DNA of 44,696 nucleotides from sequence record PV841870.1; one strand, given 5' to 3'. The DNA is from Escherichia phage Pandora71. Below are positions 16,036 to 16,660 of this stretch, piece after piece. Every line of letters starts with the position of its first letter. Position 1 is the first letter of the stretch. The notes below the pieces were generated by a model. That model saw only the letters and a program-made list of their open reading frames with translations. It ran no database searches and had not been told where the DNA came from. The position numbers and the translations under genes were made by a program.

Positions 16036-16352
16036 TTGAGGCGGCGCGACGCTTTTATGGCCCGCCGCCACCCTCCGAAGATTTAGCCGCAAGTTTATGG
16101 GGTGCGGCCCCCGAAGATGTTTGTCCGCCTGTTGCGCTATGGCCCGACAACGCTAAGGTAGTCGCAGTCTTCACAGATTGCTCCACGCAATGGCGCACCG
16201 GATTTTGTGGCGCATACGGCATCGACTACGGCGTGTTGGAGTGGTTATTTAAGATGCACGGCATCGAAAACGAGCAGCGCGCGTTTAAAGATATCAAGCT
16301 AATGGAACGAATAGCGCTTGATGAAATGGCGCAGCAGAACCCCGCACAATGA
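16029..16352 (+). CDS. frameshift extension of tail assembly chaperone (gpGT-like, -1 frame)
   Basis: open -1 frame from slippery heptamer at 16026-16032 to TGA 16350-16352 (about 107 codons). Confidence 0.6.
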   Translation, partial: KLIEAARRFYGPPPPSEDLAASLWGAAPEDVCPPVALWPDNAKVVAVFTDCSTQWRTGFCGAYGIDYGVLEWLFKMHGIENEQRAFKDIKLMERIALDEMAQQNPAQ

Positions 16353-16660
16353 AGCGGGACAGGCGGGACGTCCCGTTTTGTCCCGCACCGCTAAAACTGC
16401 ATATTTACGCACCACAATTGCATAAACTAAAAGCGGGACAGGCGGGACGTCCCGTTTTGTCCCACCCCCAAAATGTGAATGTCTATTCAGTTTTAGTGCA
16501 TAAACTAAGCGGGACAAAAAGCGGGACAGAATGAGGCGGGACAAAGCGGGACAGCACCACGTCCCCGCCAGTGCTGCCGCGGGTTTTAGCCGATCGGGAC
16601 AGGCGGGACAAAGCCCAGTCTTTCAGACTAGACGGGGGTCAATGGCCCCCCTCGTCTGAG
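16352..16660. repeat. structured GCGGGACA-box array (copy A), ends in near-palindromic GGGGG/CCCCC hairpin
   Basis: about 10 direct GCGGGACA boxes plus inverted copies; two 33-bp compound palindromic units at 16354-16386 and 16433-16465; 3' ~190 bp matches 44405-44592. Confidence 0.85.

Follow-up and report, generated by a model that had tools for sequence, protein, structure and literature searches.

Two iteron-like box arrays in the Dhillonvirus phage Pandora71: a candidate replication origin behind the primase-helicase gene and a related module in the tail operon

The oriV of RSF1010 combines iterons with the hairpins ssiA and ssiB, which act as priming signals, and uses RepA, a helicase of the AAA_25 family. 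In P4, whose iteron is TGTTCACC, the sites ori and crr lie about 4.5 kb apart and are both bound by the alpha protein. The alpha protein, ori and crr were reportedly described by Flensburg and Calendar in 1987 and by Ziegelin et al. in 1993. The domain layout of alpha, in which primase, helicase and a C-terminal winged helix are joined in one polypeptide, has been summarised (PMC2777425). For ORF904 of the archaeal plasmid pRN1, an essential cis element is located in the non-coding DNA just 3' of the gene, part of it being a conserved stem-loop that is sensitive to disruption, and layouts of this kind have been noted for bacteriophages (PMC4234260). SaPI Rep and SCCmec Cch2, which are self-loading initiator helicases, carry a C-terminal domain that binds iterons just 3' of their gene (PMC7581432, citing Ubeda et al. 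2007). In lambda, the origin ori-lambda lies inside the O gene (PMC7466680).

The window analysed here is the whole stretch of 44,696 nucleotides deposited for Escherichia phage Pandora71 (PV841870.1), which is the complete Dhillonvirus (HK578/SO-1-like) genome of a virulent E. coli phage with an AT content of 45.6%. It contains two non-coding box arrays, referred to as region A (16352-16669) and region B (44391-44585); features are given on the + strand unless marked as inverted, and the terminal stem-loop segments carry no strand. Region A is flanked by the tail chaperone and tape measure genes, as an earlier note on this DNA had proposed: the Pfam scan identified the tail assembly chaperone (Phage_TAC_4, 15658-16035), in line with the gp15/gp16 annotation of HK578 and SO-1, frame translation placed the end of its -1 frame extension (DUF1799; joint feature 15658..16352) at the TGA of 16350-16352, so that this feature bounds region A on its left, and the ATG of the tape measure gene is at 16733. 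Region B is located just 3' of the primase-helicase gene, and its module begins 128 bp past the stop codon. As the genome is circularly permuted, two distances separate the regions, 27.9 kb along one arc and 16.8 kb along the other. The GC skew tracks gene orientation, and neither region stands out in it. Open reading frames of 61 and 81 aa that span region A are not taken as genes, since indels in the spacers disrupt their frame. Among the sources searched, the GenBank record of SO-1 alone already flags both repeat regions, and our literature search on the box, Dhillonvirus repeats and origins, the SO-1 regions and Jerseyvirus origins yielded no paper discussing the element.

The box GCGGGACA occurs exactly 16 times in the window compared with 2.06 expected copies and a maximum of 7 in 100 shuffles, with eight copies in region A and six in region B. 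The "about ten direct copies" of the earlier note hold for the core 6-mer CGGGAC, which is present between 16354 and 16610 in ten direct and three inverted copies, with an additional degenerate inverted GTCCCCG at 16561, but not for the 8-mer, with seven direct copies and one inverted copy in the same interval. Both regions share a module with the same order of elements, namely an AT-rich palindrome, TGCATAAA, four direct boxes, one inverted box, a GC-rich spacer, two further boxes and a long hairpin. The spacing from core to core is also alike, with 12, 15 (A) or 16 (B), 10, 48 and 9 bp. In region A, the core array (16509..16616) has direct boxes at 16509, 16521, 16536 and 16546, a degenerate inverted box at about 16561-16567, the GC-rich spacer and direct boxes at 16594 and 16603, and in region B (44424..44532) the direct boxes start at 44424, 44436, 44452 and 44462, followed by the inverted box at 44476-44484, the spacer and the direct boxes at 44510 and 44519. 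The alignment of 16476-16669 with 44391-44585 covers 195 bases with 84.6% identity. The second copy of the last 190 bp or so of the element, pointed out previously, is therefore real; however, it starts at 44391 rather than 44405, and with about 30 differences the description "few substitutions" was generous. Most of these differences fall within the GC-rich spacers, which carry single-base indels and have diverged between A and B.

Upstream of the shared module, region A has a part of its own made up of two tandem units of 79 and 78 bp (16352-16430 and 16431-16508; repeat families D5 and D8). In each unit, two direct and two inverted boxes make up a 33-bp compound palindrome; of the two described in the earlier note, the one at 16354-16386 is exact and the one at 16433-16465 has one mismatch (...TGTCCCAC). 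They are followed by an AT-rich stretch (66-74% AT) with a 14-bp palindrome, degenerate at 16398-16411 and again present at 16476-16489, and by the conserved box TGCATAAACTAA, which was found after each compound palindrome as claimed (16419-16430 and 16497-16508) and once more in region B at 44412. The corresponding AT-rich segment of region B (44391..44423) comprises the palindrome TGAATAGTTATGCA (44391-44404) and TGCATAAACTAA (44412-44423) and is a candidate DNA-unwinding element, with 74.5% AT over 44373-44423. In both regions the AT-rich stretch, with 74% AT over 39-51 bp as opposed to 45.6% in the genome, adjoins the GC-rich array; the most AT-rich 40-bp window of the genome falls in region B, and that of region A ranks in the top 0.2%. 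At the other end, the terminal palindrome and G/C hairpin were recovered: AGTCTTTCAGACT is present at 16617-16629 and 44533-44545, and the G5/C6 hairpin is embedded in a longer imperfect stem-loop (16616-16664, with its loop at 16639-16645, and 44532-44580), after which GAGACTGAATAA completes the segments 16616..16669 and 44532..44585. Folded as DNA, the stem-loop reaches -13.4 kcal/mol (z -3.8) in region A and -13.7 kcal/mol (z -3.6) in region B. The left flank of region B (44264..44390) contains three direct copies of another repeat, ATTGGTTGC, at 44275, 44329 and 44364, and inverted copies are found at 44646-44654, 40-48 and 71-79 (repeat family D7). With 14 copies against 0.46 expected, ATTGGTTGC is a separate, promoter-associated motif distinct from the box.

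The primase-helicase (41999..44263, + strand, 754 aa) consists of an AEP PrimPol N-terminus, a Cys/His cluster, an AAA_25 (RepA/DnaB-like) helicase domain with matches to Pfam AAA_25 and phrog_3228, and a predicted C-terminal winged helix at about residues 665-740. The AF2 model of residues 1-350 matches the AEP domain of the S-2L PrimPol (6zp9_A) with an E-value of 2.8e-5. When the AF2 model of residues 598-754 was searched with Foldseek, every one of the 50 listed matches was a DNA-binding domain of the winged-helix or HTH type, with MarR-family regulators at the top, at weak E-values of 0.03-0.3; P4 alpha (1KA8) is absent from these best 50 matches, and searching with only the C-terminal 190 residues gave no protein matches. 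The last 90 residues or so are modelled as H1-b-H2-H3-wing with a pLDDT of 80-91. In relatives, the residues that differ only in the clade with the box GTGTGGCA cluster in H2, the turn and H3. However, the winged helix of the window is 57.9% identical both to the clade with the same box and to the clade with a different box, so that in close relatives the link between protein and box rests on few residues and one switch. The HTH protein at 41659, which the earlier note had put forward as a box-binding candidate, is an unlikely reader, since its HTH is unchanged across the box switch and no homologue was found beside the distant arrays checked.

Compared with the described systems, the locus shares with SaPI Rep and Cch2 an origin-like region just 3' of a helicase gene, short direct and inverted repeats and a fused or adjacent primase. 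A C-terminal helicase domain as the sequence-specific reader is demonstrated there and predicted here. Those helicases are of the DUF927 or D5/Primase_Cterm type and serve Gram-positive islands with a single origin, whereas the Pandora71 protein is of the AAA_25 type and two sites are present. With P4, the locus has in common the union of primase, helicase and winged helix (the latter predicted here) and two separated clusters of one short iteron, one of them beside the initiator gene. However, alpha joins a DnaG-type primase to an SF3 helicase in place of the AEP primase and AAA_25 helicase of the window protein, which is thus no homologue of alpha despite the analogous layout. In P4 one protein binds both clusters, which is proposed here by analogy, and the 4.5 kb between them contrast with 16.8 and 27.9 kb in Pandora71, where one site lies inside the tail operon. 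ORF904 of pRN1 likewise joins an N-terminal prim-pol to a helicase and ends in a winged helix (PMC4234260, PMC2777425), but its helicase is of the SF3 type and its single origin, a stem-loop of 100 nt, lacks an iteron array. The helicase family and the combination of iterons with conserved hairpins recall RSF1010, which distributes iteron reading (RepC), helicase (RepA) and primase (RepB') over separate proteins. A lambda-like arrangement is found in 18 unrelated viral contigs, where arrays of the very same box occupy the central, linker-encoding part of a gene for an O-like winged-helix initiator. The window differs in that its arrays are non-coding, its putative initiator is the primase-helicase, and no O or P homologue was seen.

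Among the Dhillonvirus records, region A is present in 157 of 158 and region B in 154 of 158, and at least three further clades have region A as well. In 15 copies of region A, the box columns are 96% conserved compared with 87.5% for the other columns, and in 18 copies of region B the values are 93% and 84%. In both regions the boxes, TGCATAAA and the stems are better conserved than the spacers and the loop; the 3' stem of region A is 99% conserved and its loop, which varies freely, 85%, with a similar pattern in region B. No covariation could be counted in the stems, as they are invariant. In related clades, the scaffold of palindrome, TGCATAAA and hairpin is kept and the box is replaced, and this applies to both sites of one genome. 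A sister clade has CGGGAC in both region B (L128) and region A (L263), the contig ERR11172925_9173 has GTGTGGCA at its A end and at its B end, and SRR25999232_910 has GTGTGCCAA in region A; the hairpin is retained in clades with a different box. Region A of the sister clade was located via the tape measure homologue, as a 14-mer scan gave too many chance matches. In Salmonella phage GRNsp27, all five genomic copies of GGGGGAGA lie just 3' of the helicase gene in the same layout, with two copies of the AT-rich palindrome at the matching place. GRNsp27 has no copy at the chaperone/tape measure junction and has one site only. The array directly 3' of the initiator gene is also found in L128 and GRNsp27. 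Escherichia phage Snoke (Kagunavirus, helicase 33% identical) has neither an array 3' of the helicase gene nor a gap between the chaperone and tape measure genes.

The IMG/VR database was scanned for paired boxes, which yielded 114 non-Dhillonvirus loci. Where at least five boxes occur per 400 bp, 23 of the 35 arrays are found either where an AAA_25 primase-helicase gene ends or within a lambda-O-like initiator gene, as opposed to only 6 of the 53 two-box loci. Of the 25 helicase loci, about 18 have their first box no more than some 25 bp from the stop codon, and the helicases of these loci have Prim-Pol/PriCT_2 or Toprim/Zn-ribbon N-termini. One further distant array lies 3' of a DUF5906 (P4-alpha-like) gene. 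No window protein other than the primase-helicase recurs beside the distant arrays, whose small upstream ORFs are mutually unrelated. Two candidates for additional arrays were discarded, as the extra cluster of L086 is a coding 21-nt repeat and L035 carries a different GGGACA-rich array in GC-rich DNA. The extended box logo is alike in all groups, and the box a-G-CGGGAC-A recurs with at least four initiator architectures that are unrelated to one another. An hhalign comparison of the Dhillonvirus winged helix with the C-terminal parts of the distant helicases and with the N-terminal domain of the O-like proteins detected no homology between any of the three (probability below 3%), which weighs against the idea that such different proteins would read one box.

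We propose, with a probability of roughly 55%, that regions A and B are two iteron-type modules bound by the replication initiator, with B as the primary origin and A as a second origin or a crr-like partner. The proposal draws on the near-universal presence of both regions in Dhillonvirus with boxes and stems as their most conserved parts, on the AT-rich stretch adjoining a GC-rich array with a box spacing common to A and B, on the joint box switch on a constant scaffold, on the position of B directly 3' of the primase-helicase gene, as in SaPI Rep, SCCmec Cch2 and pRN1 ORF904, on the linkage of box arrays to initiator genes in unrelated phages, and on the predicted C-terminal winged helix. 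The AEP-primase/AAA_25-helicase protein would read the a-G-CGGGAC-A boxes via this winged helix, oligomerise on the array and then melt the adjoining AT-rich stretch, load itself as the replicative helicase and prime nearby, with the hairpin as a candidate loading or priming structure. Region A might be a second origin, or a crr-like site bound by the initiator of B and acting together with B. Of the roles considered in the earlier note, a second cis site for the primase-helicase comparable to P4 ori and crr is therefore the one favoured by comparison, through box linkage, joint change and the predicted winged helix, and we infer binding and initiation from these. Besides the weak fold matches, the lack of profile homology among the putative box-reading domains and the thin link between protein and box in close relatives, other observations weigh against the origin model: the GC skew is silent on both sites, GRNsp27 copes with one site, and region A is situated at a transcription-unit boundary.

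The last of these leads to transcription control at operon boundaries, which we consider unlikely, though worth weighing. A regulator would sit on the arrays, with palindromes and hairpins as terminators or roadblocks, and the protein bound at the ends of the primase-helicase and tail chaperone units would tune read-through or downstream promoters and thereby time the tape measure and distal tail genes. Indeed, each copy has the end of a + strand gene on its 5' side and promoter-like sequence on its 3' side. Close 3' of region A, 37 bp before the tape measure ATG at 16733, the extended -10-like motif TGATACAAT (16688..16696) is invariant in 15 Dhillonvirus genomes and retained in sister clades (L265 and L267); judged from its consensus alone, it is probably a promoter for the distal tail genes, adjoining the element but outside it. 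3' of region B, ATTGGTTGC boxes occur with a -35/-10 arrangement. Furthermore, a rho-independent terminator is annotated in region A of HK578, WFI and PTXU06, TTTT follows the compound palindromes, and most boxes share their strand with the gene before them. However, the common neighbour of the arrays in unrelated phages is a replication initiator and no regulator, and the arrays within O-like genes mirror the layout of the lambda origin (PMC7466680). The HTH_23 protein, the sole obvious regulator nearby, keeps its HTH through the box switch. Nor does the terminal hairpin have a U-run within reach: the terminator scan of both regions left it uncalled, and its only calls were on the minus strand in the compound palindromes, in numbers near those of shuffles. 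A structured RNA, be it a small RNA or a 3'-UTR element for stabilising or processing the transcripts of the upstream genes, appears highly improbable. The long stem-loop does fold better than shuffles (z -3.6 to -4.2), with conserved stems, a variable loop and the same orientation in both copies, but Rfam 15 gave no gathering-score match in the whole window and only chance-level matches up to an E-value of 1, with scores in regions A and B of 18-21 bits against cut-offs of 60-80, and a sigma-70-type promoter scan of both regions found none in front. The invariant stems offer no compensatory change, the swap of an 8-mer at fixed positions and spacing is the behaviour of a protein site rather than of helices, and many distant arrays mix both box orientations, so the RNA role suggested before finds no support.

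A pac site or second terminase site, also raised in the earlier note, seems extremely improbable. Several public records and contigs start or stop within the element, but assemblers failing at the 190-bp repeat explain such breaks better, and one contig spans exactly A to B with identical 27 bases at each end. Neither copy is near terS (4865-5515; gp1 in SO-1), which is 5 kb from region B and 11 kb from region A, and the distant arrays are linked to replication genes. PhageTerm predicted headful packaging with a circular assembly for Opt-212 (PMC9022532), and a cos site has been claimed only for EE09, where the 10-mer given is an unrelated one (PMC10673088). We judge it very unlikely that region A is a duplicated origin module that has no function or is selfish, persisting by descent or gene conversion in an insertion-tolerant gap. 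Such a duplicate would fit the junction, which accepts insertions in relatives (two minus-strand genes in L263, one in L265), the lack of a copy there in GRNsp27 and the divergence of the A and B spacers. Against it speak the wide distribution of region A, which all but one of the 158 Dhillonvirus records and at least three other clades contain, the conservation of its boxes and stems to the same degree as in region B, and a box type that tracks that of B through at least one specificity switch, for which neutral DNA would need continual conversion.

Returning to the two-module origin model, an initiator may bridge both arrays across 17 or 28 kb, on the pattern of P4 ori-crr looping but over a longer range. 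Another option is that the loading of helicase at region A may turn on the downstream promoter for the tape measure and distal tail genes. A joint reading, in which the tail-operon copy couples replication to late gene expression and a-G-CGGGAC-A is a pan-phage origin word, is decidedly unlikely in our estimate. If such a word exists, it would imply either a mobile origin-binding module invisible to profile methods or an unrecognised common reader.

Dhillonvirus and its relatives are small virulent siphoviruses that have been isolated widely with a view to phage therapy and that also serve as model collections. To our knowledge, replication origins are unmapped in this genus and in its relatives, which include Guernseyvirinae-like Salmonella phages and several metagenomic clades. 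The element described here provides a precise origin candidate with a predicted reader domain, a box, an AT-rich stretch and a hairpin. On the practical side, the 190-bp repeat breaks short-read assemblies and is labelled "hypothetical protein" in many records. The boxes GCGGGACA, GTGTGGCA, GTGTGCCAA and GGGGGAGA represent natural specificity swaps on one scaffold and thus material for binding and origin-swap work. A second conserved copy within the tail operon is unusual and could be used to test long-range bipartite origins of the P4 type in virulent phages.

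The window is the complete genome (44,696 bp) of a Dhillonvirus of the HK578/SO-1/SSL-2009a group of virulent E. coli siphoviruses. From position 1 up to about 25.6 kb, the plus strand carries the small genes and the lysis, terminase, head and tail genes; the minus strand encodes DNA polymerase A, helicases and methylases between about 28.5 and 41.4 kb; and from 41,659 to 44,263 the plus strand again holds genes, for an HTH protein of 109 aa and a primase-helicase of 754 aa. The short repeat GCGGGACA, here called the box (6-mer core CGGGAC), occurs 16 times, where 2.06 copies are expected and 100 shuffles gave at most 7; 14 of the 16 copies fall into two clusters, regions A and B. 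Region A (16352-16669) occupies most of the 380 bp that separate the TGA at 16350-16352, where the tail chaperone's -1 frame product (DUF1799) stops, from the tape measure ATG at 16733. Region B (44391-44585) starts 128 bp past the primase-helicase stop codon and aligns with the final 195 bp of A at 84.6% identity; the earlier note had recognised this second copy but placed it near 44405 instead of 44391. Its count of about ten direct boxes in A holds for the 6-mer core (ten direct, three inverted) but not for the exact 8-mer (seven direct, one inverted), and both of its compound palindromes are present, the second with one mismatch.

The two copies share a common anatomy. A 14-bp palindrome, TGAATAGTTATGCA, embedded in a 74% AT stretch, is followed by TGCATAAACTAA and then by the box array, which is made up of four direct boxes and an inverted one and, beyond a GC-rich spacer of about 25 bp, two further direct boxes, with core-to-core spacings of 12, 15/16, 10, 48 and 9 in A and B alike. 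After the last boxes come the palindrome AGTCTTTCAGACT, a long imperfect stem-loop, whose predicted fold is more stable than that of shuffles (z -3.6 to -4.2), and then GAGACTGAATAA. The genome has an AT content of 45.6%, and its most AT-rich 40-bp stretch is located in B. Region A additionally contains a tandem pair of units, 79 and 78 bp long, and in each unit two direct and two inverted boxes make up a palindrome.

Over the 1.8 kb surrounding the element, SECphi18, BF9 and more than 140 further records match at 93-94% identity. Of 158 Dhillonvirus records, 157 contain A and 154 contain B, and 15 IMG/VR genomes have exactly one of each per genome. In an alignment of 33 copies, in which conservation is the fraction of sequences with the majority base, the box columns are 93-96% conserved, the TGCATAAA columns 98-100% and the 3' stem 98-99%, as opposed to 68-85% in the loop and 84-88% in other columns. 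Single-base indels occur in the spacers, and the ORFs annotated across region A in many records are therefore not genes. The GC-rich spacers differ between A and B, yet are conserved within each type, and the duplication is therefore older than the genus.

In closer relatives, the boxes change while the architecture is retained. In a sister clade with a 68% identical helicase, CGGGAC boxes together with the same hairpin are found in both places, past the helicase gene (locus L128) and ahead of the tape measure gene (L263). The contig ERR11172925_9173, whose helicase is also 68% identical, spans precisely A to B and carries GTGTGGCA boxes at both ends in the same scaffold, and region A of SRR25999232_910 has GTGTGCCAA boxes with the palindrome, TGCATAA and the same hairpin. 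GGGATC-type repeats, less clean, occupy both sites in SRR26384698_5047 (helicase 46%). In Salmonella phage GRNsp27 (helicase 44%), two TGAATAGTTATTCA palindromes directly after the helicase gene are followed by GGGGGAGA boxes (three direct, one inverted, one direct), all five genomic copies being located there; its tail operon has no copy of the element. Replacement as a set, at fixed positions and at both sites of a genome, is the pattern to be expected of binding sites for one fast-evolving specific protein. In related clades, the chaperone/tape-measure junction also accepts insertions beside the array, namely two minus-strand genes (L263, 1853-2601) and one small gene (L265, 2471-2644). Public contigs and records often begin or end within the repeat (L163, L266, L267, LR990702, OX460974, MN158213); ERR11172925_9173 (L266 and L267), 27.6 kb long, has identical 27 bases at both ends. 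The 190-bp repeat seems to break short-read assemblies, and such breakpoints could be mistaken for physical genome ends.

A scan of IMG/VR for two boxes 1-8 bp apart gave at least 120 loci, many without nucleotide similarity to the window, though with 5-12 boxes per 400 bp. Among the loci listed, the primase-helicase is the only window protein with relatives beside arrays, found at at least 25 of them by iterated profile search. At about 18 of the 25 helicase loci listed, the boxes begin no more than about 25 bp from the stop codon; they mostly share the strand of the gene, and an inverted box often follows 50-120 bp further along. These helicases combine AAA_25 with either Prim-Pol/PriCT_2 or Toprim/Zn-ribbon, and one additional array follows a DUF5906 (P4-alpha-like) gene. 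At no fewer than 18 further loci, the boxes lie inside lambda-O-like winged-helix initiator genes, in the part that codes for the linker (aa 82-135), which is the ori-lambda layout (PMC7466680). Arrays with at least five boxes are initiator-linked in 23 of 35 cases versus 6 of 53 two-box loci among those listed, most of the latter being expected by chance. The extended logo a-G-CGGGAC-A is identical across all groups; profile-profile comparison of the three putative origin-binding domains found with it (the Dhillonvirus C-terminal winged helix, the distant helicases' C-termini and the O-like N-terminal domain) detected no homology. Dense GCGGGACA arrays in contigs L042, L067, L085, L096 and L103 adjoin the ends of large ORFs missed by the helicase profile (one DUF5906, P4-alpha-like, one weak Toprim_3, three without Pfam match), which may be further initiator classes using the box. 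Two unrelated arrays are those of L035 (4500-6100), a GC-rich contig whose roughly 40 GGGACA/TGTCCC motifs point in both directions and form two clusters separated by 1.2 kb, and L077 (6663-6955), in which a 15-bp tandem repeat inside an ORF carries the box 12 times.

The candidate reader of the box is the primase-helicase. The model of aa 1-350 (pLDDT 85) best matches the AEP domain of the S-2L cyanophage PrimPol (6zp9_A, E 2.8e-5), followed by other AEPs; D87xD89 and H120 vary little or not at all, and residues 357-531 form AAA_25. The model of aa 598-754 contains a canonical winged helix at about 665-740 (pLDDT 80-91), and each of the 50 Foldseek matches listed is a DNA-binding domain of the winged-helix or HTH type, with weak E-values of 0.03-0.3; among them are MarR and MepR-DNA complexes, the winged helix of ORC2 and histone H1. 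Primase, helicase and C-terminal winged helix form the layout of P4 alpha and pRN1 ORF904 (PMC2777425), and an origin directly 3' of the gene is known for SaPI Rep, Cch2 and pRN1 (PMC7581432, PMC4234260). The residues that set only the GTGTGGCA clade apart are clustered in the winged helix, in H2, the turn and H3; the overall identity of this domain fails to separate the box clades (57.9% for both). The small HTH_23 protein encoded upstream is unlikely to be the reader, because its HTH does not differ between the CGGGAC and GTGTGGCA clades and no protein like it was found beside the distant arrays checked.

That protein (41659-41988, sigma-70-region-4-like, HTH invariant across clades) is a candidate reader of a second motif, ATTGGTTGC, which occurs 14 times in the window versus 0.46 expected: at 40-48, 71-79, 30058, 41459, 44275, 44329 and 44364, and on the minus strand at 10754-10776, 26863, 31958-31983, 34932 and 44646. 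The majority lie at or near gene boundaries, and the majority are oriented like the downstream gene; the copy at 40-48 provides a TTGCAT -35 17 bp upstream of TATATT. Retained in sister clades, ATTGGTTGC is probably a phage promoter or operator motif. Two conserved GC-rich hairpin repeat pairs, GGGGCCATGTGGCCCC followed by T-runs (25589-25619/28503-28533) and GGGAGGCAGTATTGCCTCCC (29687-29715/30011-30039), lie at convergent or tandem gene ends and have the look of ordinary bidirectional terminators. Read on the plus strand, long GTC/GTCGTC-rich direct repeats (37732-37950, 40846-41127) correspond to acidic, Asp/Glu-rich repeats of two early proteins encoded on the minus strand (37716-38519, 40743-41435).

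That A and B are both iteron arrays with a role in replication, bound by the primase-helicase, is, in our estimate, slightly better than an even bet (about 0.55), with higher confidence for B alone than for A, which lies 17-28 kb from B within the tail operon. Region A coincides with a transcription boundary, and the extended -10-like motif TGATACAAT (16688-16696) stands 37 bp ahead of the tape measure ATG. This motif does not vary among 15 Dhillonvirus genomes and also occurs in two sister clades. A separate promoter directly after A probably serves the distal tail genes, and a transcriptional role of A, alone or combined with replication, is a live rival. GC skew in the window is uninformative, and neither an RNA nor a packaging function of the element found support (PMC9022532). 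On paper, the pair resembles P4 ori and crr, but does not belong to the P4 family, because primase, helicase and iteron all differ.

The bare observation of paired repeats is not new, since the SO-1 GenBank record (2009) already annotates two similar repeats, named 'region A' and 'region B'; no published analysis of the element was found in the literature. What appears to be new is that the box changes jointly in both sites and that one and the same box is linked to several initiator architectures. Region B is a candidate for an ordinary iteron origin beside a self-loading initiator helicase, here an AEP/AAA_25/winged-helix protein.
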